Assembly: GCA_029210585.1 (NCBI GenBank)
Contig: JARGFP010000006.1
Span: forward strand, 7,949-71,948
Origin: Bacteroidales bacterium
GTDB taxonomy: Bacteria; Bacteroidota; Bacteroidia; Bacteroidales; GCA-2748055
DNA: 64,000 bases
Direction of reading: 5' to 3'
The notes beneath the pieces are model-generated. The model ran no database searches, had not been told where the DNA came from, and saw nothing but the letters and a program-made list of their open reading frames with translations. Positions 8,283 to 32,175 of this stretch are shown here, piece by piece. Both the position numbers and the translations under genes were made by a program. Each line of letters starts with the position of its first letter. Position 1 is the first letter of the stretch.

Positions 8283-8294
8283 CTTCGCTGCTTT

Positions 8295-9857: not shown

Positions 9858-9997
9858 CGATTAATTTTTAAATGTTATCAAGTCCGATAGTGCCCGACAT
9901 AACAGCCTGTCAATGGTTCCTGTCGCCTGGTGTGAATTATGCACCAGCGTGTATGAGAATACTATTGTCATGGCCCGGTTCATATCCCTTATTTTTA

Positions 9998-13282: not shown

Positions 13283-13283
13283 T

Positions 13284-15830
13284 TTATTCAAACCTCAGTA
13301 CTTCGTCAATTTGATGAATGACGGCTGTTGATGAAGTTGTTATGGATGATGCATTGAAATCAGCGCCGGTGCCCGTTCCATCAACCTCCCTGTAGGCCAG
13401 TGGATTATTGCTGAAAATATAATCGCGGACCATCATGTTGTAGAGGCCATTATCGGTAACGACCCGGGCGGTGCCATAGTTTTCGGTTGAGAGCTGCAGG
13501 TTGTCCCCATTGCCGGAGATCCCCAGCCTGTAGTACTTGTCTTTGTATGTTCCGAACTGTGTTGTTTCCTCGTCCATTTTGATGGTAGCGGTCTGGTAGA
13601 GCTTGTCCACCGGTGTGCCACTGATGTACACTGAATTGTCCTGGAAATGATACCTCAGGAAACGTTCCAGTTTTTTTATCTCTTCTGCACGGGCCGAAGT
13701 AGTGTCCGGCATGCCGTTGATCTCCTCCCAGTCGCTGATCAGGTTATCATCAATTGCCTGCCGGATTGCTTCATTGGTAGGTACATACACCGTGTAGTTA
13801 AAGGTATTGAAAAACTTGATATTGAAGTCGATCCCGTAGTAATTGGTTTTCTTGACGAACACCTCGTTCGTTGTACCTGTCAAACCGTTCAGCAACAGGA
13901 AAAACTCACTGAATTCAGGGGTTTCGCTCAGCACCCTGTACACTGATCGAAGGGGTGTCTGAATGGGTTTGTCGATGAAATAGGTGATCCCGTTTTGTTG
14001 TTCAAAGACTCCGTTTGGCACCACATTCACTGCGATACCCCTTACGATGTCATTGCCTCCCTGCACCTGCAGGTTGTCCCCGGTACCCTGTACCTTGATT
14101 GAATTCCCGTTTTTGGTGAAATAATACTGTTCCCCGGATTCCACATCGCCCACTACAATGTGCGAATCAAGGACATCCAGCAACCTGTTGGCAATGAAGC
14201 TCCGGTCAGTAATCACGGCAACGGAATCTCCCACGATATCATTCACGGCATCATAGGCATAGATGGTGGCATTTACCCTGCTGGTCTCTGTATTGTACCA
14301 GTATTTCATCACTCCCTTCACATCCTTGGCGTAGGCGACCGGATCGATATAGTTATTAAAAAACGCATCGGTCGGGACAAACAGGCTGTACCGGCTCACA
14401 AGCGAGTTCAGGTAGAGCCTGAAGTCGTTTTCCCGGATCACCCAGTTAAATACCCGCGTTTTCTCACTGAAAAGAACCGGTCCGTACACCGAAACATAAT
14501 CGTCAGGCGGATATACTTCATCTGTCTGGTATACCACACCGTTTACGCCCACATAGGTACTTTGCACATCGGAAGTGACAACAGGAATAGGAGAATTTTC
14601 GCTGTCATTCATTTTATCAAACCTGCTCGGAACAGTCTCGATAAAGGAAGTCCTCAGGTGTCGCTTAAGAAAAAGCATCACTATATCGTCCGGAATGCGG
14701 TCCCAACTCCCATAGCGGTCACGCAGCACGATCCCGCTGCCTGTTTCAAAATAGGCATTCATGGCTGCATCGGAAGGACTCAGAATTGCTGCCATATCCG
14801 ATTGCAGGGCACTGCCTGCGCCAGGGGGCACATAACTGTTCCTGCCCGGATTAAAGGGCAACAGGAATTCGGTGCTGATCAGGCTCCCGTTGGGATAACG
14901 CACTGCCCCGTCGACGGCAGAAAAGTATTGTTTTTCATAGATGGAGTCGATCGGCTGGTCCGGATTGACCTGGTTATACTCAATGGTCTGGTTGTCGTTA
15001 AAATAGGGTGCGCTGAAACGTTCCAGCAGGCTGGAAAAGATCTGGGTGTCCGGGTTCCTTCGCAGGTGCTCAGCAATATTGACCGGTGGGATCAGCACTT
15101 CTTCCAGCACATGGATATATCCGTTCTTACAGGTAATGTCCCGCTCGACCACCTTGACATTAAAAATATGTGCATCAGTCTGTTCCCGTTCCGCGCCGGT
15201 GATCAGTGTAAAATCACTGTTACTGATTCCGGCGTTTGAAAGCGTGCTTGGCAAAAAATGCACCATCGGCCAGGATGTGGCATCTTTCAACAGGTGGATT
15301 CCCTGGGTGCGAAATCCATTCCAGACAGGTCCTTGTGGCAGCATATCTCCCGATTCAAATGGAATGCTGTCCAGCACGGATACTGCCGTTTCGCGCCTGA
15401 GGGCTGTTCCCAGTTGCAGGCTCCCGTCGAAATAATTGGAGAGTGTTTCGACCAGGTACGCATTATTGATCATCGTGAAGTTGAGGATCAGCTTTTTCTG
15501 TGACACGGAAAGGTCGTCATAGCTTCCCACATTCCATTCATTGTCCTGGAAGAAACGATCAAATGCATCATCATCGGCCACAAACAACGTTTTGCTGCCC
15601 GACTTTGCAAGCACAGAGGTATACCCGATATCGTCAATCAACCTTGTATAATTGGTAAAATTGCCATCTTCCACCAGGTAATCATAGATACTTGCGCCGA
15701 GCCACTCCGGCTCACTGTCGTCATACAAATAATCGTCCTTGCACGAAACAAAAAAAACACTCATGCCCAGCAAGAGTGTGGCAAGGAAGAGAGGATAAAT
15801 ACTTTGTTTCCAGGATCCTTTTTTCATCAT
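13284..15830 (-). CDS. Multi-FAS1 (fasciclin) lipoprotein, about four FAS1-like modules
   Basis: 848 aa. Lipobox MSVFFVSCKDD. Four H1-like/H2-like pairs: TLFVADDDAFDRFF ... GYIHVLEEVLIPP; AAILSPSDAAMNAYF ... GVVYQTDEVYPP; SLFVPTDAFFNNYI ... GITYFIDKPIQTP; YTVYVPTNEAIRQAI ... AVIHQIDEVLRFE. Confidence 0.8.
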   Translation of the reverse strand: MMKKGSWKQSIYPLFLATLLLGMSVFFVSCKDDYLYDDSEPEWLGASIYDYLVEDGNFTNYTRLIDDIGYTSVLAKSGSKTLFVADDDAFDRFFQDNEWNVGSYDDLSVSQKKLILNFTMINNAYLVETLSNYFDGSLQLGTALRRETAVSVLDSIPFESGDMLPQGPVWNGFRTQGIHLLKDATSWPMVHFLPSTLSNAGISNSDFTLITGAEREQTDAHIFNVKVVERDITCKNGYIHVLEEVLIPPVNIAEHLRRNPDTQIFSSLLERFSAPYFNDNQTIEYNQVNPDQPIDSIYEKQYFSAVDGAVRYPNGSLISTEFLLPFNPGRNSYVPPGAGSALQSDMAAILSPSDAAMNAYFETGSGIVLRDRYGSWDRIPDDIVMLFLKRHLRTSFIETVPSRFDKMNDSENSPIPVVTSDVQSTYVGVNGVVYQTDEVYPPDDYVSVYGPVLFSEKTRVFNWVIRENDFRLYLNSLVSRYSLFVPTDAFFNNYIDPVAYAKDVKGVMKYWYNTETSRVNATIYAYDAVNDIVGDSVAVITDRSFIANRLLDVLDSHIVVGDVESGEQYYFTKNGNSIKVQGTGDNLQVQGGNDIVRGIAVNVVPNGVFEQQNGITYFIDKPIQTPLRSVYRVLSETPEFSEFFLLLNGLTGTTNEVFVKKTNYYGIDFNIKFFNTFNYTVYVPTNEAIRQAIDDNLISDWEEINGMPDTTSARAEEIKKLERFLRYHFQDNSVYISGTPVDKLYQTATIKMDEETTQFGTYKDKYYRLGISGNGDNLQLSTENYGTARVVTDNGLYNMMVRDYIFSNNPLAYREVDGTGTGADFNASSITTSSTAVIHQIDEVLRFE

Positions 15831-15856
15831 CAGTCATTTTTAAGAGGTTTGATCCC

Positions 15857-18616
15857 CTATTTTTTAATGAACCTGGCAGGTTGGTTACCAGTCGTTCTCA
15901 ATATATACATTCCGGCAGGAAGCGCACTTATATCTATTGCATGCAGTGCCTCTGCCCCGATAAGCTGATGCCCCGTAACATCATAGATCTCATACCGGGT
16001 GGGACGGTCCAGATCGATGTACAGCACATCATCCACAGGATTGGGATACAGTTTCAACGACCGGACCGAAGGGGAAACATGTGTCCCAATCACCTGTCCG
16101 GCAGCCAGGTCCACCACCATCCAGCCCAGCTGGTCTTCTTTCACAGTGGCGATTCCGCCTGAAAACTCGCGTTGTTTGAGCAGGTTAACGGTATGATCGC
16201 CGGTGCGGTTATAACGCATGGTTGCAGCAAAATTATCGGCTGCGGTCTGCAAACCGGCAAAGAACGCCGGCTGGGTGTAACTGGAATCGTACGACAGTTC
16301 CATTGGCCTGGAAGTCACCCCGCTGCCATCCACTGTACGTCCCACCGTGATGCGTTTCCCTTCGATGTCGCCCTGTCCCTGTTCAATGGCCAGCACGTGG
16401 ACCGTTTCAGGAAAAACAGGCCCGGTATAGGCTTCTTCTGCCTTCAACAAGAGATCAAAACCCGTATGCGATACATTCTGAACAGCCACTGTTAACGGGG
16501 ATGTATTGGCTCCGGAGGCGATGGTGCAGAATATGACGGGGTCCCCTGCAAATGGCTGTTCGAACTGCACACTCAGCCATTCGTCCTGCACATGGGTTAT
16601 TTCCATTGCTAAAGCGTTCAATTCACCAAAATCATGCGCTCCGGGAGGTATGGCAATGACTGCAATATTGTCGGTACCGGTAAAGACAGGATCCTTCAGG
16701 TATGCCCAGGGTAAGAGATGAAATTTAAACCTGGAGCCGGAAATATTGCTGACCCGCCGGGTCATGGGAAATACATTGTTAAATGTAGGAATGCCCAGCA
16801 CCACAAGCGGATTTTCAGCATATGCTTCTGAAAAAAGCGTGGTGTTCCATTCCGCATTGCTGACCCTGAAAGTTCCGGACTGCACATTGCCTGCCCCACC
16901 GGTCTGGAAATAGGATACCTCATTGGATACCAGGTATTCCCCTTCCTTTGTCTGGAGCCTCAGTCTGTAAGAAACCGTACCCCCTGTACCAGCATCGAGC
17001 GGATCCAGGAAATAATCTACTGCAATGTCATCGCTCGAATAAACGGTTTCAAACGCCCCGTCATTCACTCTTTTTTCCAGCGTATATCCTGCCGTCAGCT
17101 CTCCATTGCTGTCGGTCCAGCTTAACCGCATGCTGTTGGATAACGTAAGGTACCTGAGTGAAAGTTCCGGTTCCAGGTAATTCCAATGCGGAATCACTTC
17201 ATTGGCGGAGTTGTACGCGATTTGTGATTCATTCTCCTTGTAGTATGCACCTGCCAGGGTTACTCCCCCGTTGAGGATCATGGCGCGACAATCCTGTACC
17301 CAGTCGTAAATGAAATAGCGTTCCACGAAGCTGGCCGTATCGAGTACCTGCAGGATGCCTTTGATATCATTGAGCTGTTTCAGGGCATTGTCATCTGTAT
17401 AGCTTCTGTTGCCATCGGGCCACCATTCATTCGTCCAGTTTGCTCCATTGTTCCATTCCGTGATCCACAATGGCCTGCCTGTCTGCTCATGGATATATTT
17501 CAGATCGTTGTACCAGCTGATGGGTGATTTCCCTCCCCAGTAACAATGTAGCGGGACAAAATCAACCCGGTAATTCAGTGCATCGCATGTATTGATAAAA
17601 TCAAACAGGTTTCCGCCATCGCCTCCCCGGGCATTGGACCAGGCCGGGGCGCCTATCCGGAGACCGGAGTTCATCATTGCCGGCCAGATGTCGATCATCT
17701 GCTGGAAGGTCATGTTCGCCTGGTCGGGCCGGTCAGGTTCGTTGAATCCCAGCAGGTGACTCACATTTCTTTTTGCGTTGATGTCAGACCAGGAAGGCCA
17801 TCCGGCGTTCTGCCTGATCAGCACATATTCAACATCTGAAGAAGAATTCCCCCCCACATTCCAGTCGTAATAGCTCGTACAATCGAGGTCGTGGGGATTC
17901 CAGCCGGCTTTGGCCTTTTTACTGACAAACTCGTGTCTGAACACCCTGACAAATGATGCGGTACTGTAGAGTTCAGCCGGCATTGTAATGAATTCAAGAT
18001 CCTCCTGGTCCGCAATAAAGACCCGGCTGTACCCACTTCCGTCAGCGTTATTGGCAAATGTTGCCATGTACCCGCGCTTCAGCCTGAATGAGCGAATGGC
18101 ATTGTCGAATTCACCCAGGCTGTTGTGATAGATATGCAGTCCAAGTTGCCTGGGGGTACCGGCAAATGCATCCCCGCTGTAGACGGTTAAGGGTGAAAAT
18201 GATGCACCATGAGGCATGATCACCGTACCATGACCGTAGATGGCCACCCGTCCGTTGGTTCCATTTACTAGATGGGTGCCATTGGCCAGGACTCCGGAGA
18301 GATGCCTGCTGATCACCTCCGAGGGTTTGATATTGTCGAAAAAGAGCCACGCATCCTCGTGATCCAGGGATACGGTGCTGTTCATCATAGGAGCATCAGG
18401 TGATGTAAGGTGCAATTCAGCCGGTTCGGCAAGCACCCTGTTCTGGTCAACAAGACTTTCCAGCGTTTCCTGCGGAATGGAAAGCAGGGAAACGGGCACA
18501 ACAGCCATGATTAGTATGGATAGAAATGTATGCTTCCAATTCTCCCACCTCCAGCAGTACTCTCCTGTTGGTCCAGTACACGAATCGTTCCGTGTACCAT
18601 TAAGCGTATATTTCAT
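15857..18616 (-). CDS. Secreted clan GH-A glycoside hydrolase (Glyco_hydro_cc/PF11790-like catalytic core) with Ig-like modules and a T9SS C-terminal sorting domain
   Basis: 919 aa. The catalytic core is aa ~235-395: SYYDWNVGG, LLGFNEPDRPDQANMTF (NEP acid/base, Glu codon 17738-17740), VDFVPLHCYWGG, PLWITEWNNG (TEW nucleophile, Glu codon 17456-17458). The C-terminus LKLYPNPVDDVLYIDL ... GMYILRTTGNQPARFIKK is a type A T9SS CTD. Confidence 0.78.
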   Translation of the reverse strand: MKYTLNGTRNDSCTGPTGEYCWRWENWKHTFLSILIMAVVPVSLLSIPQETLESLVDQNRVLAEPAELHLTSPDAPMMNSTVSLDHEDAWLFFDNIKPSEVISRHLSGVLANGTHLVNGTNGRVAIYGHGTVIMPHGASFSPLTVYSGDAFAGTPRQLGLHIYHNSLGEFDNAIRSFRLKRGYMATFANNADGSGYSRVFIADQEDLEFITMPAELYSTASFVRVFRHEFVSKKAKAGWNPHDLDCTSYYDWNVGGNSSSDVEYVLIRQNAGWPSWSDINAKRNVSHLLGFNEPDRPDQANMTFQQMIDIWPAMMNSGLRIGAPAWSNARGGDGGNLFDFINTCDALNYRVDFVPLHCYWGGKSPISWYNDLKYIHEQTGRPLWITEWNNGANWTNEWWPDGNRSYTDDNALKQLNDIKGILQVLDTASFVERYFIYDWVQDCRAMILNGGVTLAGAYYKENESQIAYNSANEVIPHWNYLEPELSLRYLTLSNSMRLSWTDSNGELTAGYTLEKRVNDGAFETVYSSDDIAVDYFLDPLDAGTGGTVSYRLRLQTKEGEYLVSNEVSYFQTGGAGNVQSGTFRVSNAEWNTTLFSEAYAENPLVVLGIPTFNNVFPMTRRVSNISGSRFKFHLLPWAYLKDPVFTGTDNIAVIAIPPGAHDFGELNALAMEITHVQDEWLSVQFEQPFAGDPVIFCTIASGANTSPLTVAVQNVSHTGFDLLLKAEEAYTGPVFPETVHVLAIEQGQGDIEGKRITVGRTVDGSGVTSRPMELSYDSSYTQPAFFAGLQTAADNFAATMRYNRTGDHTVNLLKQREFSGGIATVKEDQLGWMVVDLAAGQVIGTHVSPSVRSLKLYPNPVDDVLYIDLDRPTRYEIYDVTGHQLIGAEALHAIDISALPAGMYILRTTGNQPARFIKK

Positions 18617-18756
18617 AGTTGAGTAGTTAGCTAAGTAGTTACCTGTCTCTTTTTACTTTCGAACAGGTCAAACAACAATACTAAAATAATGTCTCCAATA
18701 AACAAGTTCTATCAATATTCCGGCAAAAAATGTCTCTTATTCGCAATTTGGTCGTT

Positions 18757-21546
18757 TTACTGTTTCAGTACCTTACCATTATGCACCTGTATCCCGTTCA
18801 CCACAACCTTGTAGAGGAATACTTTTCCTCCTCCATATGTTGCAATATCGTTGAAAATAAACTGTTGGTAACCTGTTTCACAATCACGTACCTGCATGCT
18901 TACCACCTGTCCGGTCAGATTGGTCAGTACCACTTTCACTTCGGCAGCCCGGGACAGGTTCATCCCTATGGTAAAGCTTTCAGTGAATGGTACCGGGTAT
19001 GCCACAACGGAAAGTTGCTCATCCGGTTTTCTTTCTCCGAATCCTACATCGGTTAGCAGGGTGGTAAACATTTGCTCTGCGCCATAGCTCGTACCCATGT
19101 CATTCATGGCATAGGCCCTCACATAATAATCCGTTCCAGGTTCCAGCCCGGTCAGTTCACGTGCGAAAGTTCCGCCTCCTGATCCTGCAATGATCTTTGC
19201 CCCGGTAAGTTCAGGTGACGAACCGGTACCCAGGAAGAATCCATTTTCAATGATTTCGGCTCCTCCGTCATCGAGGACATTTCCTTCGGCTGTCGCAGAC
19301 TGCCTGGTAATGCCCGTTGTTTTCAGTGTAGCCACAGCAGGCAGGGCATTTTCCGTCAGCGTGGTGAAGCTTACCAGGTTGCCATATACAGTGCCCAGGT
19401 CACTGATCGCATACGCCTGGATATAATGAACCTGGCCGGAAACAAGGTTCGATAATTGCATGTAAAAGTTTCCGGTACCGCTTCCCAGGTCAACTTTCAC
19501 TCCTTCCGTCACGGGATCAGGCGTTGTGCCTATGTAAAGTCCCCGTTCCCTGACCGTGCTGCCTCCTTCATCTGCCACAAATCCCCCGACGATCGCTGAA
19601 ATGTTGGTTATTCCGGTGGCAGCTGTAGTAGTAACGGTTGGTAGACTCAGGTCTATTGCCTCAATCGCATCGATCTGTTCATCGAACCAGTCGATCCTTT
19701 GGGTAATCCACTTGTAGAGGTAATCCACCTCGTTGTTGTAGGTGCCCCCTACATAGTTATTGGGCCACACATAAGTATTCAGCACGTCCCAGACTGCAAA
19801 ATTCCTCTGCTGGGCTTCTGAGAGCAGGGTGGCAGCTGAATCGATCACATGATAGATCCGGCCCTTGCTGATCACGTTCTCCGTTAATTCTTCCCATCTG
19901 TATTTAAGCAGGGTTTCAAAATAGGGATCTGTTCTTAACCTGTCCCACCAGAATGGTATTTCGTAGGCATCACCTCTCCCGATACCATCTGATGCCCATC
20001 CCACCGGGTCGCCTGCATCAAAGAAGTTGGCGTTCCCAAAACAGATATTGTAGTCCCAGAAAGGAGTCATCACGAGTTTACCTCCTTTGCTGTCCTTGTC
20101 CTTGTGGAAATAAACGCTGACCCTGTACCCATCCAGGTCCTTGCTGAGTTCTGTTATAATAAAATAATCGATAAAGGAGATCACATCGATGTACGCCCTG
20201 TACCCCAGCTCCGGATCCCTGTAGTTCTCTCCATGCAGGGCATACTCAAATTCGGTGATGTATTCCCTGATATATGCCCGCTGTTCGGGCATCAGTTCGT
20301 CATATTTCGGGTCGACGTAGGAAAATGGAACATCTACGCTGCCTGTTCTTCCCATGAACGGGGAATTCCAGCTTCCAAACTGATCCCGGTCAATGCTGAT
20401 GATGTATCCCCCGGTGAGCTGATCGCCTGATATATCTTCGGGATAGAGCCGGGCAATGTCCACCCGGTCGTTGTCGATTTTGATCTTCTCAGCACAGAGA
20501 TAGACGCCCCGGTATTCGCCATTGATCTCCAGTTCCACGAACCGTGTACGCGGATGCCATTCGTCGCTCATGACATTCCCGATATTGTAGGCCAGCATAT
20601 TGCGCATCAGGGATTTATCGGAATAGGGACCATGAAACACCCAGTCATTCTCAACGGGCATGCCCAGCAGCGATACGTTGTTGTTCTCACCGGTACTGAG
20701 CCGGGTCTCAACGGTATAGCTCTTCTTAGGGAACATTTGTGCCGTATTGCCCCGGATTTCGATTCCGATAAAACCATTATATGTGTATACCGTGTCGTCA
20801 AAGAAATTCCTTCCCCCGGGCTGGTCGATCACTTTCATGGTACCCGTGATTTTCGGCTCATCCGGGATGCTTTGTCCCGCGGTATTGATCTTCACAATGG
20901 GAAGATTCGAGGATTCGAAGGAAATGGGTACCTTGAACCACGCGGGTGTTTCATGAAAGATGGTCTGATCCGAATCGATTTCAGCATGCAGGAAAAGCCG
21001 GGCAGACAGGTCCGATGAACTCAGATCCATGTTGAGAATATGTACTGCCAGGAGGTTGGCACCATCGTTCAGGACGGCAGGATCCAGGGCAAATCGTTCC
21101 GGCATACCGCCACTGTACATGCCTGTCTCGTGATCGTAGGTAACCGATCCGCTGATGGCAGGGGTTCCTGCGAGCAGGTTTGCCGACCGTGCCACCTCCA
21201 TTCCGTTGATATACGCAACAAAAGCATCGTCGTAGTCGATATCCAGGACCAGTTGACTGACATTAACCGTTGTGGGCAGGTTCAGTTCCTTCCTTATATA
21301 TATGGAGGTTGTTGCCGGCACAATGGTCCGGTCATCCCCGTCGCCATAACCGAATCCTCCCCTGCCGGAGTCCCAGTTTCCATCATTGAATTGTAACTGC
21401 ATCCAGTCACCGGGCGGTTCGTTTTCAGGAACCAGATATGTAAACTGGTCGTCTTCCAGCACGAGACTTTTCCAGTGCAGTTGAGTGCCTGCCGGCGATA
21501 CTGCGCTGAAAAAAGCCATTGATATAAGAAGATACAGTTGCTTCAT
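18757..21546 (-). CDS. CotH kinase-fold family protein, secreted (N-terminal beta-sandwich, CotH domain, two ~95-aa repeats, T9SS CTD)
   Basis: 929 aa. The CotH-type core is aa ~212-625 (YSDKSLMRNMLAYNIGNVM ... TRFVELEINGEYRGVYLCAEKIKIDNDRVDI ... FWDYNICFGNANF). Two tandem repeats are aa 635-730 and 735-830 (TTGIT..SA...G.V.D.GG......G...GT...P). The C-terminal VVAYPVPFTESFTIGMNL ... LYKVVVNGIQVHNGKVLKQ is T9SS CTD-like. Confidence 0.8.
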   Translation of the reverse strand: MKQLYLLISMAFFSAVSPAGTQLHWKSLVLEDDQFTYLVPENEPPGDWMQLQFNDGNWDSGRGGFGYGDGDDRTIVPATTSIYIRKELNLPTTVNVSQLVLDIDYDDAFVAYINGMEVARSANLLAGTPAISGSVTYDHETGMYSGGMPERFALDPAVLNDGANLLAVHILNMDLSSSDLSARLFLHAEIDSDQTIFHETPAWFKVPISFESSNLPIVKINTAGQSIPDEPKITGTMKVIDQPGGRNFFDDTVYTYNGFIGIEIRGNTAQMFPKKSYTVETRLSTGENNNVSLLGMPVENDWVFHGPYSDKSLMRNMLAYNIGNVMSDEWHPRTRFVELEINGEYRGVYLCAEKIKIDNDRVDIARLYPEDISGDQLTGGYIISIDRDQFGSWNSPFMGRTGSVDVPFSYVDPKYDELMPEQRAYIREYITEFEYALHGENYRDPELGYRAYIDVISFIDYFIITELSKDLDGYRVSVYFHKDKDSKGGKLVMTPFWDYNICFGNANFFDAGDPVGWASDGIGRGDAYEIPFWWDRLRTDPYFETLLKYRWEELTENVISKGRIYHVIDSAATLLSEAQQRNFAVWDVLNTYVWPNNYVGGTYNNEVDYLYKWITQRIDWFDEQIDAIEAIDLSLPTVTTTAATGITNISAIVGGFVADEGGSTVRERGLYIGTTPDPVTEGVKVDLGSGTGNFYMQLSNLVSGQVHYIQAYAISDLGTVYGNLVSFTTLTENALPAVATLKTTGITRQSATAEGNVLDDGGAEIIENGFFLGTGSSPELTGAKIIAGSGGGTFARELTGLEPGTDYYVRAYAMNDMGTSYGAEQMFTTLLTDVGFGERKPDEQLSVVAYPVPFTESFTIGMNLSRAAEVKVVLTNLTGQVVSMQVRDCETGYQQFIFNDIATYGGGKVFLYKVVVNGIQVHNGKVLKQ

Positions 21547-21784
21547 GTGCAGGACCCTAAATAACGATAAACTGCTTCATTTAATTATCAAAGTTGGCAA
21601 TAAAATGTGAAATTCACCCCGGTCATTTCATAATAAGTGGCAATTAAACACTTATTATTGAAAAATAAGCTATATTGACGAATTTGTAACAGGAAATGCT
21701 GAAAATTTGAATTGATATAGTCTGAAATAATAAATAAATTGGTCAAAATATCGATTACACATTAACTTACTAAACTATTGAATT

Positions 21785-24700
21785 ATGAAATCTGAAATTC
21801 TACGCAAAAGAAAGTGGTTCGTGTACCTGTTCACAGGACTGTTTTGCAGTGCTGCTGCATTTGGACAAGCCACATTGAAGCACAGCTATACCTTCGAGGA
21901 TGGTACGGCAAATGATGTTGTGGGAACTGCACACGGGACCGTTGTTGCCGGGACGATCGCAGACGGTGCATGGACCGGTGCGGCGAACGGTGAGTATATC
22001 GACCTTCCGGGGGCAGCGATTGCCATCAACACCTACAGCGCAATTACACTGGAAGCCATGATCTATGCCGACGTGGACAATACCCCTGCCACCATGCTGG
22101 CCTATTTCGGGGGAAATGAAAATGGAGTGGGCGGAAACGGGTATTTTATGACACCCGACCGCTGGAGTGAAAGCCGGACAGCGATTTCCTGCGGAAATGT
22201 CACGCAACCCTGGAATGCGGAACAAGGAGTCACTGCAGCCCCGGTTGCTGTCGGGGAAAAGCACTACCTGGTGAGTATCCTGACCAACAGCAGCATCAGC
22301 TGGTACATCGACGGTGTACTGGAAGGTACTGCAGAAGTTTCCGGGAACAACTCCATCGCCAATTTAAGCAACGACCTGGCGATGCTGGCCAAGGGCGGAT
22401 ATGATGTCGATCCCACCTGGTTGGGCACCCTTCATGAATTCAATATTTACGAGGGCGAGCTCGATGCAGCCACGATGGCACAAAACATCAGCAATTTCCT
22501 GGGAGTGAACGTTGCAGATGCAACCCTGGCAAGCCTCGAAACAAACAAGGGTTCTGTGGATCCAGCCTTTGATCCGAGTGTGGACCTTTATGAAATCTAC
22601 GTACCTTTTGGAACTACTTCAATCATCATAGACGCCGTTCCAACAATCGAAGGGGCAACGGTTGCGATGTTCGACGGTCTTGGAAATGAAATAACAGATG
22701 GCATTGTTACTTTTGGCGGTGATGGCATTGATTTGGAAATCATTGTGACAGCATTGAACGGAACAACAGAGAAATCATATTTCCTTTCCATCTTCCTCAA
22801 TCCGGGCGTAGAAGTTGCCACACTGACATCCATTGATCTTTCAGTGGGCAGATTCACCACGGCATTTGATACAGACCTCACCGATTATACTGCCATCGTT
22901 CCATTGGGCACCACCACCGTGGATGTCACTGCAGTGCCCACCTGGAGTGGCGCAACCGTTGCAGGTGATGGCACGATTACACTTACAGACGGTACTGCAT
23001 CCGTTGCCATCACGGTAACATCAGAAGACGGTCAGACCACACAGGTCTATAATGTCGAAATTTATGAATCGAAGATCGCAACAGGTAATAATTATTATAT
23101 CAAGCATGATGGTTCCGTGTTTGTAGTCACCGAAAGTGGTGAACCATACAACCGGATTGTGATGGATTACCCACTGAGAGATGAACCAAGGCAGCTCTTC
23201 CAGCTTGTGGAAAGTGGTGTGCCTGATCAGTATTACCTGAAAAACGGGACCAACCAGTACCTTACCCTTGTCAAGGATCCCGTATGGGATATGGTCATGG
23301 TACCCGAACTCACCAATGACCTCGATAGCTGCAGGTTCATCATTGATGAATTTGAACCGGGCAGGGTCAAAATATATTCCGTGGCCCGGCTTGAAACTCC
23401 CAATTACCTGACGGGGCCGAATTCAGCTGCACAAGGAGGGATATTCTCTGACAAGTACCCGGACAACCAGCTGGCAATATGGAATATTCTGCCACCCGAC
23501 GAGGTCGTTTCTCCCTTTGATACCGACCTGTCGGAACTGAGCGTGGACCCAGGCAGTATTGCCCCTGAATTCAATCCCTTCATTACCGAGTATTACGTCA
23601 CGTTCCCTGTTGGAACCACTTCAGCTACTGTTACCGCTGTTGCCAACGATGGCACGGCGACTGTAACTGGTGACGGTACCATAGATGTATCCGCGGGAGA
23701 AGGCACCATTACAGTGACCGTGACTGCCACAGATACGCAGTATAAGAAGGATTATGTGATCCATTACATGGTCAACACACCACTTACCCTGATGCATTCC
23801 TACACCTTTGCGGACGGTACCGCGGAAGATGTGGTTGGAGATGCCGACGGAACCGTGATTGGAGGTACGATCAACAGCGGGGTATACAGTGGCACGGCCA
23901 ACGGCCACCACATCACCCTTCCTGGAGATGAGATTGCGATCAACACCTACCCTTCCATCACTGTTGAATTGTACCTGGCTGATGATGCCAATACCAGCAA
24001 TGATATCAACACCATGACAAGTTATTTTGGTAACACCGCAGGTACATATGGTACGGACTATTATTTCACATCGCTGAAATCACGTGCGGCCATCAGCTGC
24101 AACAATACTTCAGATCCCTGGGCTACGGAAAACGGAGTGACAGGCATCAACCTGCTGGACGACGGAAGTCCGCACCACCTGGTAAGTGTGCTGAACAATG
24201 ATTCGATCACCTTATACCTCGATGGTGTATATACCGGAATGACTCGTCTGACTGGCAACAACAATATCCGGAACCTGAGCAACGCTTTTGCGTATCTCTG
24301 CAAGTCAGGTTACGTGAACGACCTGACCTGGCTCGGTGATATTATGGAATACAACATTTACACAGGACAAATGGACGCTACCACCATTGCCACGCGGGCC
24401 ATTGATTTCCCGCTGGAAGATTCCACGACGGATGCCACGTTGGCAGATCTCATGGTTGACGGTGTCACCATTGAAGGATTCGCATCTCCCAACCTGTCGT
24501 ACGATGTCGTGTTGCCAAGGGGTACGACTGTCGTTCCGACCGTGGCTGCCACGCCGAAGATTTCAACAGCTTCTGCAGCCGTTACAGCAGCGAACGAAGT
24601 ACCGGGAGCCACCACTGTACTGGTCACTGCCGAAGACGGCACCACCACGAATACCTATACCATCACTTTCAGTCTTGAAGCATCTGCCGAGGCAACCCTT

Positions 24701-25444
24701 TCAGACCTGACAGTGGACGGAACCACTATTGAGGGCTTTGAGCCGGGAGTTACCACCTATAATTATGGATTGGCTGCCGGAACAACCACAGTGCCCACGG
24801 TCGCCGGAACGGCATCTTCCACCGGTGCAACTGTGGATGTAACAGATGCAGATGCAATCCCGGGAACAACGACTGTTGTGGTTACTGCAGAGGACGGAGA
24901 AACAACGACAACCTATTATGTCAACTTTATCTTCGTACTATCTGCAGACGCAACGCTTGCTGATCTTACGGTTGACGGCAACACAGTTGAAGGATTTGAT
25001 CCGGTTGTAACTGCCTACGCAGTGGAATTGCCCCAGGGAACCACTGTGATCCCGACTGTGAGCGCCGCCACAACGCATCCCAATGCGTCATTCACCGTGA
25101 ATGATGCAGCATCACTGCCAGGGGTGAGCAATGTGGTTGTAACTGCAGAGGATGGAACCACGAAAAAGACCTACTATGTAAACTTTACACTGGATGTTTC
25201 ATCCCGTGATATACATGCTGACCTGGTTAAGGTGTATCCAACAGTATCCAATGGCAGCTTTAAGGTGACTACGGGTGAAGGCATGCATGTGATCGAAATT
25301 TATGACATGACCGGTTCTCTTGTCTCTGAAACGATCAGCCATGATCATGAAACACTGGTCAGGACTCCCAAAACAGGGATTTATATCCTGAAGATTGGAA
25401 ACGATGCATTCGTTAAAACATTCAGGATCATACACGCTGAATAG
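21785..25444 (+). CDS. 1219-aa secreted multidomain protein: 2x LamG/concanavalin-like, 6x cadherin-like beta-sandwich, one beta-trefoil-like module, T9SS CTD
   Basis: Signal peptide MKSEILRKRKWFVYLFTGLFCSAAAFGQ. LamG-like modules lie at ~21870-22505 and ~23785-24420 (TLKHSYTFEDGTANDVVGTAHGTV vs TLMHSYTFADGTAEDVVGDADGTV). The cadherin-like repeat signature (ATL.DL.V..G.....F.P....Y.V.LP.GTT.VP.V) occurs six times. YYIKHDG / YYLKNGTNQYL / LAIWNI suggests a ricin-B-like trefoil at ~23090-23500. The C-terminus is VKVYPTVSNGSFKV ... GIYILKIGNDAFVKTFRIIHAE. Confidence 0.75.
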   Translation: MKSEILRKRKWFVYLFTGLFCSAAAFGQATLKHSYTFEDGTANDVVGTAHGTVVAGTIADGAWTGAANGEYIDLPGAAIAINTYSAITLEAMIYADVDNTPATMLAYFGGNENGVGGNGYFMTPDRWSESRTAISCGNVTQPWNAEQGVTAAPVAVGEKHYLVSILTNSSISWYIDGVLEGTAEVSGNNSIANLSNDLAMLAKGGYDVDPTWLGTLHEFNIYEGELDAATMAQNISNFLGVNVADATLASLETNKGSVDPAFDPSVDLYEIYVPFGTTSIIIDAVPTIEGATVAMFDGLGNEITDGIVTFGGDGIDLEIIVTALNGTTEKSYFLSIFLNPGVEVATLTSIDLSVGRFTTAFDTDLTDYTAIVPLGTTTVDVTAVPTWSGATVAGDGTITLTDGTASVAITVTSEDGQTTQVYNVEIYESKIATGNNYYIKHDGSVFVVTESGEPYNRIVMDYPLRDEPRQLFQLVESGVPDQYYLKNGTNQYLTLVKDPVWDMVMVPELTNDLDSCRFIIDEFEPGRVKIYSVARLETPNYLTGPNSAAQGGIFSDKYPDNQLAIWNILPPDEVVSPFDTDLSELSVDPGSIAPEFNPFITEYYVTFPVGTTSATVTAVANDGTATVTGDGTIDVSAGEGTITVTVTATDTQYKKDYVIHYMVNTPLTLMHSYTFADGTAEDVVGDADGTVIGGTINSGVYSGTANGHHITLPGDEIAINTYPSITVELYLADDANTSNDINTMTSYFGNTAGTYGTDYYFTSLKSRAAISCNNTSDPWATENGVTGINLLDDGSPHHLVSVLNNDSITLYLDGVYTGMTRLTGNNNIRNLSNAFAYLCKSGYVNDLTWLGDIMEYNIYTGQMDATTIATRAIDFPLEDSTTDATLADLMVDGVTIEGFASPNLSYDVVLPRGTTVVPTVAATPKISTASAAVTAANEVPGATTVLVTAEDGTTTNTYTITFSLEASAEATLSDLTVDGTTIEGFEPGVTTYNYGLAAGTTTVPTVAGTASSTGATVDVTDADAIPGTTTVVVTAEDGETTTTYYVNFIFVLSADATLADLTVDGNTVEGFDPVVTAYAVELPQGTTVIPTVSAATTHPNASFTVNDAASLPGVSNVVVTAEDGTTKKTYYVNFTLDVSSRDIHADLVKVYPTVSNGSFKVTTGEGMHVIEIYDMTGSLVSETISHDHETLVRTPKTGIYILKIGNDAFVKTFRIIHAE

Positions 25445-25467
25445 TTACCCTCATTTGATTAATAAAG

Positions 25468-25497
25468 GGCAGGCCTGGCGGTCTGCCTTTTTTTTTT
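25468..25497 (+). terminator. Rho-independent terminator after the LamG/cadherin gene (may also serve the convergent GH43 gene)
   Basis: GGCAGGCC (25468-25475), loop TGGC, GGTCTGCC (25480-25487). This is an 8-bp stem with one G-U pair, followed by T10 (25488-25497). It sits 24 nt after the stop codon. Confidence 0.8.
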
Positions 25498-25503
25498 CAG
25501 CTG

Positions 25504-26658
25504 TTACTGATCAAATATGGAAAGGTCCCATGCATCGTGCCATGCGATGACCGGTTGTCCTGTCTCCAGGCGTATGGGCAGCCAGACATACCTCCCGTTG
25601 ATGGGATTCGTGGGCTTCCAGCGATCGGCCATAAAAATGAACGTATCCTTTTTTCCAGGTACCGGAAGCACAAAAGTGCTTTGTGAATCAAAAGTCAGAT
25701 CTGCACCCTCCCCAACGCAAGGATTGCCCAGGTATTCCCAGGGACCCAGCAGTTGGTCTGCAACGGAAAGCCGGGCGGCATTCGGCGCCCAGCCGGTGCA
25801 GCCGGAGGTGATCATATAGTATTTCCCATCTGTTTTAAAGATTGCAGGAGCCTCGTTGTGCCCGGCAGGCAGGACACGTGTCCAGGTCTCCTCAAAGTCA
25901 AGGTAGTCTTCCGTGAGCAGTGAAATGTGCAGTGTGAGATTTTCTTCGGAGGCATGCACATGGTACGCTTTTCCATCATCGTCAACGTACACGGTCATAT
26001 CCCTTGACATTTGTCCTGCATTGAAATCACGTCTTGCAAGGCTGCCATCCACCACTGCCAATTCCCACGGTTCTGTCCACCACTCCAGCGATGTGTTATC
26101 TATCCTGTTCTTCTGTGCTTCTGTAAAGCCCATCGGCCAGGTCCCGGCATTGGGCCTGAAGGAACGGATGTAGGTATATGGACCGGTGACATGATCACTG
26201 ACCGCCAGGCCGGTGCGTGCAGCAGTGTATTCCTGTCCTTTCAGTTCCAGGTGAAACCACATCACATATTTCCCGGTTGATTCATTGAACACAACCTTCG
26301 GTCGTTCCATCAAGCAGCCCTGGATAATTTCAGAGGCTGTATCCTGCGAAACTGCCAGCACAATCCCTTCATTTGTCCAGTTATAAAGGTCCTTCGATGA
26401 ATAGCACCCGATTCCAACCAGGGCCCGGTTGCCATGCCGACCGGCAGTTTTATGCTCCCCGAACCAATAATAGGTGTCACCCCTGACCAGTATTCCTCCT
26501 CCATGGGCATTGATGTGAATACTGTCATTATCGAGCCAGACCTTTCCGGGCTGAAAATGATTATACCTTTTATATTCATTCTCTCCCCCCCGGAAACAGG
26601 AAGTGCCCATAAGGGGCAACATGATGAGCAGCAGAACGATCGGGTGATTTGTTTGCAT
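25504..26658 (-). CDS. Glycoside hydrolase family 43 (subfamily 24-like, exo-beta-1,3-galactanase-like)
   Basis: 384 aa with a signal peptide or lipobox (LPLMGTSCFRG). Motifs I associate with GH43_24 enzymes: IHINAHGGGIL..GDTYYWFGEHK, CYSSKDLYNWTNEG, ERPKVVFNESTGKYVMWFH, GQMSRDMTVYVDDDGKAY, NEAPAIFKTDGKYYMITSGCTGWAPN, TFIFMADRW, RYVWLPI. Confidence 0.78.
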   Translation of the reverse strand: MQTNHPIVLLLIMLPLMGTSCFRGGENEYKRYNHFQPGKVWLDNDSIHINAHGGGILVRGDTYYWFGEHKTAGRHGNRALVGIGCYSSKDLYNWTNEGIVLAVSQDTASEIIQGCLMERPKVVFNESTGKYVMWFHLELKGQEYTAARTGLAVSDHVTGPYTYIRSFRPNAGTWPMGFTEAQKNRIDNTSLEWWTEPWELAVVDGSLARRDFNAGQMSRDMTVYVDDDGKAYHVHASEENLTLHISLLTEDYLDFEETWTRVLPAGHNEAPAIFKTDGKYYMITSGCTGWAPNAARLSVADQLLGPWEYLGNPCVGEGADLTFDSQSTFVLPVPGKKDTFIFMADRWKPTNPINGRYVWLPIRLETGQPVIAWHDAWDLSIFDQ

Positions 26659-26907: not shown

Positions 26908-29900
26908 CTATACTTCACCCTTCCTGTCGATGTACTCCTTTGGTGTGCAACCGTAATACTGCTTAAAGCACCTGGTAAAATAGGAAGGACTCGAGAATCC
27001 CACCATATAGATGATCTCGGATATGGATCTGCGCTTTTGAAGCAACATATCGGCAGCTGTTTTCAGTCGCTGGTTCCGGATAAATTCATTGGCGGTATGA
27101 CCGGTCAGCACTTTGATTTTCCTGTACGCCTGGTTCGGACTCATGCCCAGGGCATAGCTGAATTTTTCAACATCGAATGTTGTGTCATCCAGGTGATCCC
27201 TGACTGATTGTACCGCATCCCTGAGAAACTTTTCATCGAGGGAAGAAAGTTCAATATGTCCCGGATCCGTCAGTCTTTCGGTGCGGATACGTTCATGGAT
27301 ACGCCTGCGGTTGTCCAGGATATTTTGCACCTTCAATTGAAGGTTAACCAGATTGAAAGGTTTGAATATATAATCCACGGCCCCGATTTTCAGACCATCA
27401 ATTTCATCTTCCTGCATTGTTTTTGCAGTAAGAAAAACTACAGGTATGTGCGAAGTCAGCCGGTCAGCCCGCAATACCCTGGCCAGTTCAATACCATCCA
27501 TATCAGGCATCATAATATCGGTAATGACAATATCCGGAGTATCTTTCCGGGCAATTTCCAGTGCTTCTTTTCCATTTTTCGCACCGATAACAGTAAATTC
27601 CTCCGACAAGCCATTCACAATAAATTCATTGAGTTCATGGTCATCTTCCACAACCAGGACTTTGCGGAATTCATCGCTGTCATTCAGATATGAATCACTA
27701 CCATTACCTGCAGGATCGGAATATATCTCCTGTTCCTCCATTTCCTGTTCGGCTTCACCGGCAGCATCGTACAACGTTTCGGGTTTCCGGTCCACGGGCA
27801 GAATCACCCGGAAGCAACTGCCCTGTCCTGGTGCGCTTTCCAGTTCAATGGTTCCGCCATGTTGTTCCACAAATGTTCTGGTCACATACAGTCCGATTCC
27901 TCCCGTACTCTGGGTGATTTTCTGATTGACCTGGAAAAACCGGTCAAATATCTTTTCCTGCAACGCTTCCGGTATGCCGATACCAGTATCGTCGATCTCC
28001 ACGATGCACATTCTTTCATCATAGGTTTCCGCATCAATTTCTGCATGGATACTGATCTTGCTGTGGTCTTCAGAATACTTAAAAGCATTAGACAACAGGT
28101 TGTACAGGGCCTTTTCCAGCTTTTCATAGTCGACATAGGCCTCAATGGTCCGGGCACCCAACGTGATGGTAAAATCAATATTCCTCGACAGAGCCATGCC
28201 TTTGAATGAATCATAGAGCTCATTGAGAAGGGTCACGATATTTGTTTTCCGCCGCTGGAGTTCCATTTTACCAGTTTCCACTTTCCTGAATTCCATCAAT
28301 TGGTTGACAAGGCGCAGCAACCGGTGGGCGTTTTTCTTTATCAGTTCTGCCTGGTTCCGGGTATACCCCTTTATTTCTTCAGATTTCAGCAGTTCTTCTG
28401 CCGGTCCGAGTATCAATGTCAGTGGCGTACGGAATTCATGGGTAATATTTGTGAAGAAAAGAGATTTCATTTCATTCACTTCATGCTCCTTCTCATAGTG
28501 CATGTGTTCGATCATGATCCTGCCTTTTTCCCTGACCCCGATAATGGAGTACTCCTTGAAGAAATAGAGCAGTCCGATTAACACCGCGAAATAGAAAAAC
28601 ATTGCAAAAATGGACTGGTACCAGATCCTTGCGATGGTAAATTCAAATTCAGCCGGAGAAACGCTTTCGACGCCATCGGAATTCACTGCACTTACCCTGA
28701 AAGTATAATCGCCCGGTTGCAGGTTGGTATACGTAGCCGTGTTCCTGCTGCCCATTTCATTCCATTTGCTCTCGAGTCCTTCCAGCATATAGACATATGC
28801 ATTTCGCCTGGGTTCTTTGAAATCCATCGCTGAAAACTCGAATGTCAGCACTTTTGCGCGGTACGAGAGCCTGAGATCGTCCAGGTAGGGCACCGATTTG
28901 AACACCGGTTGCTTTTTTATTTCCGGCATGCCTGCGCAGAGGCTGTTATTGGATACCAGCAGATCCGTGATGCACACTTCCGGCTGGACTACATCACGAA
29001 GGAGGCTATCGGGATGAAAAGAAATAAACCCTCCGCTTCCCCCGAAAAGGAACAGTCCATTTTCCCCCCTGATTGCCGTATTCCGTTCCACGATGAGTTG
29101 CTGGTATTCCCTGCTGAAATATTCCTTTACAAGTGAATGTCCGGTTTTACTGAGGCTGACGATTCCCCTGTAAACCCCTACCCACACGTTTCCCGAATCA
29201 TCTTCAAGGATATTGGTAATGATCTCATCGGAAATATTTTCGACGCCGGGAAATCCGGAAAAGCAGACCACCAGGCTGTCGGATTCCGTAGCCATCGTTC
29301 GTTTCTTATTCAGACCTGCATTTGATCCGATCCACAGGTTCCCTTCAGCATCCTCATGCAGCACATTGATGACATTGTCGTTGATTGTATTTGTATCACC
29401 CGGTTCATAGTAATACCTGGTGAATTTTTCTGTTCCCGGATCAAAACAATTCAACCCATTCTGGGTACCGATCCAGACTTTCCCATCCCGGTCTTCGACC
29501 AGTGCCCTCACACTATTATCCGAAAGCTGATCCGGTGCGTTCCCTGCAGTATAGGATCGAATGACAGTTGAACCATTTTGCCTGTCGATCCGTACAAATC
29601 CGTTTTGTAATGTTCCTGCCCAGATTACTCCCGGGTAGATTTCGGACCTGACCAGCATACCCACCTTGTTCCCGGGAAGTGCCTGCTCTGTAAGTGTATT
29701 ATAGAACCGAAATGCACCACCAAGTTTTTCGACATTCTGCCTGCCCGGGTAATGAATCAGTCCGGCATCTTCCGTACCAACCCATAAACCGTCGTCATCC
29801 TGCAGCAATGCCAATACCGAATTGGATACATAATGAATGGATCCATGGTCATATTCAGGCTTTGGAAGATCACGCACGAATGCAAAATACCCGTTACGGG

Positions 29901-31278: not shown

Positions 31279-32175
31279 ATGAATTCAATACTTCAGGCGA
31301 TGAAATACCTACTGCTCAATGTTTGCATTGTATTGCTCCCGGGCGTCCTGTTTGCGCAGGATACCACCTATTTATATGCCAGTGATTTCGGGATCACTGA
31401 GCACATGGATGATGCGAAATACATGCGAAAAATTGACAGCAGGTCGGTGCGAAGGAGCGTGGTAAAGACCTATGAACCTGAGGGTGACGAATGGGTGCGC
31501 ATCAGGAAGGAAAAAACCGTGCGGGTCAATGATACCCTGATGCAGATTCGTCGCAAGGCGGACAAGTTATGGCCCGAGGTTATCTCGAGGTCATTTCACC
31601 TCCAGGAGGATGGCTTGTACCGATTCACCGACAGAAAAAGGGGCAGTCTCGTCCTGGAAGGAACTGCAACCAGCCTGGTCCCGCTGCACCTGGAGGATAC
31701 CGTCAGATCGTATTACACCAAAAACATGCCCAAGTCTGTTGCAATCTATAAAAACAACAAACTGATCAGGAACCGGAACTGGCTGCGTAACGGGAATGAA
31801 TATTACGACAACCTGCACTATTTCGTCGACCAGGCCCCTGAGCACAGCCTGGGACAGGTTCATTTCAGGGCCTATATGCTGAATGGCATCGCGGAGTCGG
31901 GAATCGATCTGAGCCAGATCAGCGACAGGGTGGTAATCGGCTGGGTGGTGCTGGAGGACGGCAGCCTGGAAGGTTTTCATACGATTTCAGGAGTATTTTC
32001 CCAGTTGAACAATATACTGATCAATCTCATCAGGGAGATGCCCGGTGAATGGCAACCGGCAATGCTCGATGGCCGCCCGGTACGTTATTACATGAACATC
32101 CCGTTCAATTTCATCGACCGGTCGGAGCGCTTTGAGACACTGGAACTCAGTACTGGATTTGTCTCCTGGGATTAA
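31279..32175 (+). CDS. Secreted hypothetical protein with a TonB C-terminal-like domain
   Basis: ATG at 31279 (or 31300) gives MNSILQAMKYLLLNVCIVLLPGVLFAQD (signal peptide). The C-terminal VVIGWVVLEDGSLEGFHTISGVFSQLNNILINLIREMPGEWQPAMLDGRPVRYYMNIPFNF resembles the TonB_C / energy-transducer fold pattern. The N-terminal two thirds are unrecognised. Confidence 0.55.
   Translation: MNSILQAMKYLLLNVCIVLLPGVLFAQDTTYLYASDFGITEHMDDAKYMRKIDSRSVRRSVVKTYEPEGDEWVRIRKEKTVRVNDTLMQIRRKADKLWPEVISRSFHLQEDGLYRFTDRKRGSLVLEGTATSLVPLHLEDTVRSYYTKNMPKSVAIYKNNKLIRNRNWLRNGNEYYDNLHYFVDQAPEHSLGQVHFRAYMLNGIAESGIDLSQISDRVVIGWVVLEDGSLEGFHTISGVFSQLNNILINLIREMPGEWQPAMLDGRPVRYYMNIPFNFIDRSERFETLELSTGFVSWD

Follow-up and report, generated by a model that had tools for sequence, protein, structure and literature searches.

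A predicted secreted CotH-family kinase-fold protein next to a polysaccharide utilization locus in a Bacteroidales bacterium

Results

Identification of a CotH-family gene

The DNA analysed here, referred to as the window, is a stretch of 64,000 nucleotides from a Bacteroidales bacterium (assembly GCA_029210585.1, contig JARGFP010000006.1, positions 7,949 to 71,948), which carries at positions 18757..21546 a gene for a protein with a CotH-type kinase fold. A preliminary description, made from the letters alone, had presented this gene as encoding a CotH protein secreted via the type IX secretion system (T9SS) at the head of a glycan-utilisation locus. The open reading frame (ORF) runs from an ATG start to a stop over 929 codons, and its translation contains every string quoted in that description, to which we add that the gene lies on the minus strand. 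The same start codon is used in an orthologue of 91% identity. The protein is a further member of a known, uncharacterised Bacteroidota CotH subfamily, and we incline, with modest confidence, to the view that it is a CotH-family phosphotransferase exported via Sec and the T9SS, that it works on an extracellular acceptor, and that its gene is accessory rather than core to the adjacent polysaccharide utilization locus (PUL).

From the N- to the C-terminus, the protein comprises a signal peptide, a jelly roll resembling the N-terminal domain of glycoside hydrolase family 2 (GH2-N-like), the CotH domain, two fibronectin type III (Fn3)-like repeats and a probable T9SS C-terminal sorting domain (CTD). 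Pfam, Foldseek and repeat comparison thus agreed with the preliminary description on the domain order and on the CotH-family kinase-fold identity, with the CTD being probable. The gene and its parts are as follows.

18757..21546, minus strand: whole gene, predicted secreted CotH-family protein of 929 aa, stop codon at 18757-18759 (ORF list and translation)
21484..21546, minus strand: Sec (SPI-type) signal peptide, aa 1-21 (MKQLYLLISMAFFSAVSPAGT), without a lipobox Cys (sequence inspection)
20947..21483, minus strand: N-terminal jelly roll, aa 22-200, GH2-N/galactose-binding-domain-like (AlphaFold2, Foldseek, family conservation)
19672..20913, minus strand: CotH kinase-fold domain, aa 212-625, with the Pfam match at aa 262-620 (PF08757, Foldseek, hhalign)
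20722..20754, minus strand: N-lobe motif R265-G266...K274-K275-S-Y277, putative nucleotide-binding strand (hhalign to B. cereus R45-G46...K54-K55-S-Y57)
20116..20133, minus strand: catalytic loop D472-G-Y-R-V-S477 (pairwise, global profile and MAFFT alignments agree; codons checked)
20047..20058, minus strand: W497-D498-Y-N500, DFG-equivalent (pairwise, global profile and MAFFT alignments)
19357..19641, minus strand: Fn3-like repeat 1, aa 636-730 (45% identity to repeat 2; FnIII fold matches)
19057..19341, minus strand: Fn3-like repeat 2, aa 736-830 (45% identity to repeat 1; FnIII fold matches)
18760..19011, minus strand: probable T9SS type-A C-terminal sorting domain, aa 846-929 (PF18962 sub-threshold, family profile, homologues)

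Recent horizontal transfer of the gene was rejected because its GC content equals that of the window (50.1% versus 49.6%).

The CotH domain retains the catalytic residues of Bacillus CotH

The Pfam CotH model PF08757 matched aa 262-620 over its positions 1-321 of 322, with an E value of 6.5e-51 and 174.2 bits against a gathering cut-off of 23.8. A full-length AlphaFold2 model was built from 20 homologues, giving a mean predicted local distance difference test (pLDDT) score of 77.7 and a predicted template-modelling (pTM) score of 0.54. When this model was compared with the Protein Data Bank (PDB) by Foldseek, ranks 1 and 2 were taken by B. cereus CotH (5jd9 and 5jda; E 7e-11 and 1.4e-10, target-normalised TM 0.69-0.70), followed by tandem FnIII domains. 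At the sequence level, phmmer of the whole protein against the PDB matched only fibronectin fragments, and a 20-sequence profile reached 5jd9 with the N-lobe only.

The B. cereus CotH sequence was rebuilt from a frameshifted long-read assembly and is 100% identical to chain 5jd9_A. Aligned to it with hhalign, the N-lobe reached a probability of 94.8% in a local alignment covering aa 259-355, with R265-G266...F-P-K274-K275-S-Y277 placed on B. cereus R45-G46...F-E-K54-K55-S-Y57. The same comparison revealed the motifs D-x-S-L-x-R-N and I-N-G-x3-G-V-Y-x4-E in both proteins. For the C-lobe, the global hhalign probability was 61%, and Smith-Waterman, global hhalign and three-sequence MAFFT alignments all gave an identical register. 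In these three alignments D472, within DLDGYRVS, corresponds to D223 of B. cereus and D228 of B. subtilis, the catalytic Asp. Likewise, W497-D498-Y-N500 aligns with B. cereus W245-D246-Y-D248, such that D498 corresponds to D246 and to B. subtilis D251, the metal-binding Asp. Bacillus CotH is a protein Ser kinase that phosphorylates the Ser-rich CotB and CotG, and the B. subtilis enzyme is inactivated by either D228Q or D251A (Freitas et al. 2020, PMC7821199).

Conservation was assessed in 74 sequences from different species genomes that are 39-75% identical to the query. D472, D498, W497, G266, E280, E353, K482 and N505 are invariant in all 74, while R265 is found in 73 and K274 in 71. The preliminary description had raised the possibility that the catalytic residues are lost, which would make the protein a pseudokinase. 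This objection fails, since both Asp residues known from Bacillus CotH are retained here and do not vary within the set. With the catalytic Asp, the metal-binding Asp and the N-lobe motif all conserved, a pseudokinase is unlikely as judged from sequence, and the presence of both Asp residues in 74/74 sequences is the pattern expected of an enzyme under selection. The protein is probably a catalytically competent secreted phosphotransferase.

The same residues bear on the idea that the CotH fold is a non-catalytic binding or scaffold module, an adhesin or structural element displayed by the T9SS. Such a role would dispense with the ATP source that is lacking outside the cell, and it would sit well with the loss of the canonical catalytic-loop Asn and with spacer decoration by Fn3, PKD and LamG modules, which is typical of adhesins. 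Moreover, structural or binding roles have been proposed for extracellular CotH proteins (PMC12484212, PMC11291939, PMC9973265). However, D472, D498 and the N-lobe Lys, Arg and Gly are invariant or nearly so in 74 sequences down to 39% identity, which points to catalysis or to nucleotide/metal binding, and we judge a purely structural role to be rather improbable.

The lost Asn is replaced by S477. This residue occupies the position of B. cereus N228, five residues past the catalytic Asp, and it is Ser in 74/74 sequences as well as in a shorter Bacteroidota CotH paralogue (locus L003). The active-site signature is D-x4-S in all Bacteroidota CotH examined and WD[YF]N in most of them, while that of Bacillus is D-x4-N and WDYD. 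We regard Ser for Asn as subfamily variation and do not take it as grounds to exclude these proteins from the CotH family. Conceivably, these subfamily-specific signatures could mark a kinase fold with another chemistry or donor, such as AMPylation, another nucleotidyl transfer, or the use of polyphosphate or another phosphodonor. Atypical kinase folds with a different chemistry exist in SelO and SidJ, and the extracellular site makes ATP-dependent phosphorylation awkward. On the other hand, there is no positive evidence for a different chemistry, and a bona fide kinase has the same two Asp residues and the same N-lobe motif, so that we give this explanation little credence.

Predicted export via Sec and the T9SS

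The N-terminal sequence MKQLYLLISMAFFSAVSPA has, by inspection, an n-region, an h-region and an Ala-x-Ala-like site, as expected of a Sec signal peptide, and a helix is predicted at aa 2-15 in the AlphaFold2 model. At the other end, the last 84 residues scored below the curated thresholds for a T9SS CTD, both with PF18962 (20 bits versus a cut-off of 27, E 8.7e-4) and with TIGR04183 (13.5 bits versus 23). Nevertheless, a family profile of the CotH protein matched the solved Por CTD 8glj_D with an E value of 1.2e-3, PF18962 is precomputed on most homologues, and a seven-strand sandwich is predicted for this region. Within it, P851, P853 and G879 are invariant. The sorting domain claimed in the preliminary description is thus upheld as a probable type-A domain by the Por match, the homologues and the predicted fold, but not by the curated models applied to this copy. 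In two neighbouring genes the signals are stronger: the protein encoded at 15857-18616 has a CTD that exceeds the Pfam as well as the NCBIfam threshold, and that encoded at 21785-25444 scores 29.9 bits against 23 with TIGR04183, though 21.8 against 27 with Pfam. The above-threshold CTDs of these neighbours suggest that the organism uses the T9SS.

A conserved jelly roll and a lineage-specific pair of Fn3-like repeats

Modelled alone, the N-terminal domain reached a pLDDT of 89.6, and its Foldseek matches were the N-terminal sugar-binding domains of GH2 beta-glucuronidases and beta-galactosidases (E ~1e-5, TMq 0.50-0.55). The N-terminal beta-sandwich described previously, which holds WMQLQFNDGNWDSGRGGFGYGDGDD and DDAFVAYINGMEVAR, was thereby recovered with a GH2-N-like fold. 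No Pfam match was found for aa ~22-200 even at E <=10. The domain contains the conserved Asp-rich motifs GGFGYGDGDD and DIDYDD. A domain of the same fold class, Glyco_hydro_2_N, is also present in a SASA-type carbohydrate esterase encoded elsewhere in the window (43173-45149, minus strand).

The two Fn3-like repeats share 45% identity (E 2e-25) and their fold matches are FnIII tandems. The earlier call of two Fn3/Ig-like repeats is therefore sound, although they remain under the Pfam fn3 cut-off (20.2 bits versus 25). A further match of the repeat region (aa 634-830) is to the N-terminal part of the BT0360-type arabinanase model NF049889 (E 1e-8), and the module is promiscuous, occurring in up to 25 copies in giant proteins of 1,000-6,300 aa (P0137-P0285).

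Since the jelly roll is present in 73/73 full-length family members, at a mean identity of 43%, while the Fn3 pair is found in only 5/73, the constant unit of the family is jelly roll - CotH - CTD. The Fn3 pair is a lineage-specific spacer and, apart from this insertion, nothing is exceptional in the present copy.

The family is large and widespread among Bacteroidota

Of the 8,000 candidates scored in a word-indexed protein search, 3,913 reached E <=1e-10. Those ranking highest are ~725 aa in length, and many of them carry PF18962 and are already named 'CotH kinase family protein'; they derive from Maribellus, Saccharicrinis, Wenyingzhuangia, Marinoscillum, Roseimarinus and many metagenome-assembled genomes (MAGs). 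A scan of one genome per GTDB species confirmed CotH loci in at least 596 species genomes, which belong to Prolixibacteraceae, Paludibacteraceae, Flavobacteriales, Saprospiraceae, Cyclobacteriaceae, Chitinophagales, Crocinitomicaceae, Rhodothermia and others. The rarity implied in the preliminary description is contradicted by these numbers: the jelly roll - CotH - CTD architecture occurs across at least 596 species genomes, and annotated entries of this kind run into the thousands. Exhaustive phmmer was rejected as a measure of family size, as the Fn3-like repeats pull in giant multi-repeat proteins.

Several genomes carry CotH genes paired side by side (L003, L025, L033, L062, L078, L087), which suggests duplication and a division of labour within the family. 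At locus L003, a 477-aa paralogue without the jelly roll (8154-9587, minus strand) is divergent from a 931-aa copy.

Organisation of the locus in the window

The genes and intergenic regions around the CotH gene are listed here.

1-~1490, minus strand: partial SusD, running off the window edge (window-edge translation)
1526-4735, minus strand: SusC (Pfam/NCBIfam)
4751-6421, minus strand: fasciclin protein (Pfam)
6309-8282, minus strand: fasciclin protein (Pfam)
8295-9857, minus strand: SusD (PF07980/PF14322)
9998-13291, minus strand: SusC (Pfam/NCBIfam)
13284-15830, minus strand: fasciclin protein (Pfam)
15857-18616, minus strand: Glyco_hydro_cc + H-lectin + T9SS protein (Pfam, NCBIfam)
18617..18756: 140-nt gap to the next same-strand gene, with a 6-bp stem ACCTGT/ACAGGT and a 16-nt loop
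21547..21784: 238-nt AT-rich divergent intergenic region, 27% GC, between the CotH gene and the opposite-strand gene at 21785-25444
25504-26658, minus strand: GH43 (Pfam)
26908-31131, minus strand: hybrid two-component system regulator (HTCS; Reg_prop, Y_Y_Y, HisKA, HATPase_c, Response_reg, HTH_AraC)

The position at the head of a glycan-utilisation locus was physically borne out, as the CotH gene is the first in a same-strand run that includes two SusC/SusD pairs. In this PUL (1-18616), three fasciclin (PF02469) proteins stand where SusE/F-like surface glycan-binding proteins are usually found; in the literature searched, a single paper names fasciclin and SusD together. The two SusC proteins score 732 and 590 bits with TIGR04056. 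The fasciclin ORFs at 4751-6421 and 6309-8282 overlap by 113 nt as listed, and translation of the downstream one probably begins at a later codon. Directly downstream of the CotH gene, the product of 15857-18616 is a protein of 919 aa with Glyco_hydro_cc (PF11790), an H-type lectin domain and the above-threshold T9SS CTD. On the other side, the divergent gene at 21785-25444 (plus strand) encodes a protein of 1219 aa with LamG_3, three cadherin-like stretches and a T9SS CTD. Further away, a protein with an adenylate/guanylate cyclase catalytic domain and an HD domain (33814-35223, minus strand) is encoded next to a sulfatase (32172-33701).

The convergent GH43 gene and the gene at 21785-25444 are separated by a 12-bp GC-rich hairpin (25464-25491) flanked by A- and T-runs, which is likely to be their shared bidirectional terminator. 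As the gene immediately upstream of the CotH gene is on the opposite strand and the GH43 gene is closed off by this terminator, the CotH gene must have its own promoter in 21547-21784. The gap at 18617-18756 is 140 nt long and AT-rich (33% GC), as had been described, and a scan of it revealed no canonical intrinsic terminator. Neither 18617-18756 nor 21547-21784 contains the Bacteroidota -7 motif TAnnTTTG. In the relative with 91% identity the 140-nt gap is 95% identical, and several of the few changes fall in the loop of the stem. Footprinting against this relative was uninformative, the intergenic DNA being 93-95% identical.

The position next to a PUL is a lineage-level arrangement

The neighbourhood of the gene raises the possibility that the protein forms part of the PUL as an extracellular kinase of glycans, or of the glycans on glycoproteins: the jelly roll would bind a polysaccharide, and the CotH domain would phosphorylate a sugar hydroxyl, as Fam20B does with xylose. 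Under HTCS control, this phosphorylation would serve as a tag or bring the glycan into solution, so that SusC/D could capture it. The GH2 sugar-binding-domain fold of the jelly roll is in keeping with this, as is the location of the gene at the head of a PUL with two SusC/D pairs and an HTCS upstream, although a GH2-N fold does not prove glycan binding. The comparison of related loci bears directly on this idea.

The only relative with the same synteny is the one with 91% identity, in which the synteny is identical. The next full-length relatives (60-66% identity) are located among unrelated genes and outside any PUL; the Maribellus orthologue is likewise amid unrelated genes, and CotH relatives at loci L003, L004, L005 and L007 are flanked by unrelated genes. 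In a survey of 80 species loci, for which crude gene calls were searched with the window proteins, SusC/D-type genes were found within 10 kb in ~6/80 loci. All-versus-all clustering of 897 neighbour proteins gave a largest family that was represented in 9/80 loci. The immediate neighbours were highly diverse, amounting to 100 Pfam families over 67 loci on the upstream side and 90 families over 71 loci on the downstream side.

Some recurrent arrangements were nonetheless detectable. In the Prolixibacteraceae loci L013, L015, L016 and L029, the CotH gene adjoins the same fasciclin-SusC/D block as in the window. It lies at the tail of the block in L015, L016 and L029 and is convergent in L013, which together with the head position in the window makes three arrangements. 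A GH43+RicinB+BACON+T9SS gene is adjacent in nine loci. A full-length HTCS gene is located directly upstream on the same strand in L012, L014, L024 and L026, whereas the upstream HTCS is split into three ORFs in L033 and fragmentary in L035. L024 and L026 belong to Paludibacteraceae-type MAGs (980-12193), in which the full-length HTCS and the CotH gene are flanked by divergent GH31+PA14 and GH5 genes. The GH31 and GH5 proteins constitute a xyloglucan-like enzyme pair, and no SusC/D genes were found within 10 kb. The sensor domains of the HTCS proteins beside CotH elsewhere are only 21-27% identical to that of the window's HTCS, and the window's GH43 shares no homology with the GH43 that recurs as a neighbour. 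A conserved HTCS-GH43-CotH module was rejected on these two grounds. With non-orthologous HTCS and GH43 partners, these are different loci, traceable to about three lineages. Among the loci sampled, CotH genes are associated with PULs, HTCS regulators or GH43 in some Prolixibacteraceae and Paludibacteraceae only.

For the idea of a PUL-integrated glycan kinase, the recurrence of CotH beside the same fasciclin-SusC/D block in three arrangements, and its position directly after an HTCS and beside GH31 and GH5 in the Paludibacteraceae-type loci, are favourable, as is the recurrence of CotH modules in cellulosomes. In addition, CotH clusters with Fam20 among the kinase-like families (PMC9758233). 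Yet most relatives, the closest full-length ones included, are not in or near PULs, there is no orthologous set of partners, and the adjacencies from about three lineages are not clearly above the background, or chance, level for PUL-rich genomes. Furthermore, the sole characterised CotH is a protein Ser kinase (PMC7821199), and the source of extracellular ATP would also have to be explained. Glycan phosphorylation by this protein is purely hypothetical, and we consider it quite unlikely. The functional tie to the PUL that the preliminary description had implied was not borne out, since relatives lie outside PULs, no neighbour is shared by more than 9/80 loci and the partners are non-orthologous. 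From these sequence comparisons we conclude that the position beside the PUL is an arrangement at the level of the lineage and does not characterise the family. Within the window's own lineage, co-induction with glycan foraging is possible.

Discussion

Comparison with known CotH proteins

With the Bacillus CotH proteins (B. subtilis; B. cereus 5JD9/5JDA), the protein described here shares PF08757, the best structural match, both Asp residues, RG...KKSY and the other N-lobe motifs. The overall identity is only ~16-21%, however, and several features differ. The present protein is predicted to be exported via Sec and the T9SS, whereas Bacillus CotH resides in the mother-cell cytoplasm; it has an additional N-terminal jelly roll, two Fn3-like modules and a CTD; it has Ser for the catalytic-loop Asn and WDYN for WDYD; and it occurs in a non-sporulating member of the Bacteroidota without the substrates CotB and CotG. 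Far closer are the Bacteroidota proteins of ~725 aa that are annotated as 'CotH kinase family protein' and carry a T9SS CTD (Maribellus sediminis, Wenyingzhuangia marina, Saccharicrinis, Marinoscillum), with 56-69% identity over aa 1-630. They have the same order of jelly roll, CotH domain and CTD, and the same invariant residues. The present copy and a few relatives (P0001-P0007) differ from them in the insertion of two Fn3-like repeats before the CTD and, unlike most of the others, the present copy is located at a PUL.

Extracellular CotH modules in glycan-degrading systems have precedents in the CotH-dockerin protein CseP of C. thermocellum (Cthe_0044), in Cthe_0239 (LTD-LTD-Fn3-CotH) and in the dockerin-CotH proteins of anaerobic fungi (PMC12484212, PMC11291939). 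The role of cellulosomal CotH is explicitly called unclear in these studies, and structural or kinase roles have been proposed. Plant-cell-wall binding has also been proposed for cellulosomal CotH, and a role as an adhesin or structural module for CotH3 of Mucorales, a ligand of GRP78 (PMC12484212, PMC11291939, PMC9973265). Compared by architecture, the likeness lies in an extracellular CotH module that is tied by a targeting module to a glycan-degrading apparatus; the anchor is a T9SS CTD here and a dockerin there, and the accessory domain is a GH2-N-like jelly roll here and LTD there.

Fam20, which includes the protein kinase Fam20C and the xylose kinase Fam20B, is a kinase-like fold group that clusters with CotH and acts on secreted substrates. 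Our PDB sequence, profile and Foldseek searches gave no direct sequence or structure match to Fam20. The site of action of the Fam20 enzymes is the Golgi lumen, into which ATP is imported. In the literature searched, we found no work that ties CotH to type IX secretion or to PULs, and the statement that extracellular Bacteroidota CotH has no assigned role is in agreement with it.

A possible extracellular phosphotransferase

In the reading that we favour, the protein would be exported via Sec and then the T9SS, to be displayed on the cell surface or released, and the enzyme would have an extracellular macromolecule as its hydroxyl acceptor. If CotB and CotG, the substrates of Bacillus CotH, are taken as a guide, this acceptor would most likely be a Ser/Thr-rich surface or matrix protein or glycoprotein. 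The jelly roll may provide targeting, and the Fn3 pair may hold the enzyme away from its CTD anchor. The CotH gene would either form a transcription unit by itself or open one, served by a promoter in 21547-21784. In the lineage of the window, it would have come to stand between the HTCS/GH43 pair and the fasciclin-SusC/D PUL, as an accessory gene and not a core PUL component, possibly induced along with glycan foraging as are the CotH components of cellulosomes.

Several points weigh against this reading. We know of no ATP supply outside the outer membrane, and Bacillus CotH works in the mother-cell cytoplasm. The replacement of N228 by an invariant Ser, and of B. cereus D248 by Asn in most members, may imply that the chemistry or the use of metal differs. 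Only the N-lobe was aligned confidently by the comparison of hidden Markov models (global probability 61%), the full-length model is only of medium quality (pLDDT 77.7, pTM 0.54), and the CTD of the CotH protein scores under the curated thresholds. Lastly, scans for sigma-70 promoters and terminators stayed at the background level (18 found versus 15.7 expected; 10 versus 11.4) and are uninformative. It is the donor problem outside the cell that keeps alive the three alternatives considered above, namely a scaffold, an altered chemistry or donor, and a glycan kinase.

Significance

Secreted proteins with a CotH fold are abundant, being present in at least 596 Bacteroidota species genomes and, in addition, in cellulosomes and fungi. 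To our knowledge, none of them other than those of the Bacillus spore has been assigned a substrate, a phosphate donor or a phenotype. The strict conservation of the catalytic residues argues for enzymes that work outside the cell, and thereby creates a puzzle as to the source of energy or phosphate. This question of function and donor concerns the family in its entirety and had been raised before, in the work on cellulosomes, and the locus in the window adds little beyond the family.

What the locus does offer is a practical handle. In the lineage of the window and a few related ones the CotH gene stands beside an HTCS and a SusC/D PUL, so that the inducing glycan could switch the gene on and help to find its substrate. 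A far-reaching and, in our estimation, very unlikely possibility is that the T9SS-CotH subfamily of the Bacteroidota as a whole consists of extracellular glycan or glycoprotein kinases, which in lineages such as that of the window are wired to HTCS-controlled foraging loci. If this were true, the enzymatic phosphorylation of environmental polysaccharide would be a step in glycan capture, and the CotH proteins of cellulosomes would be explained as well.

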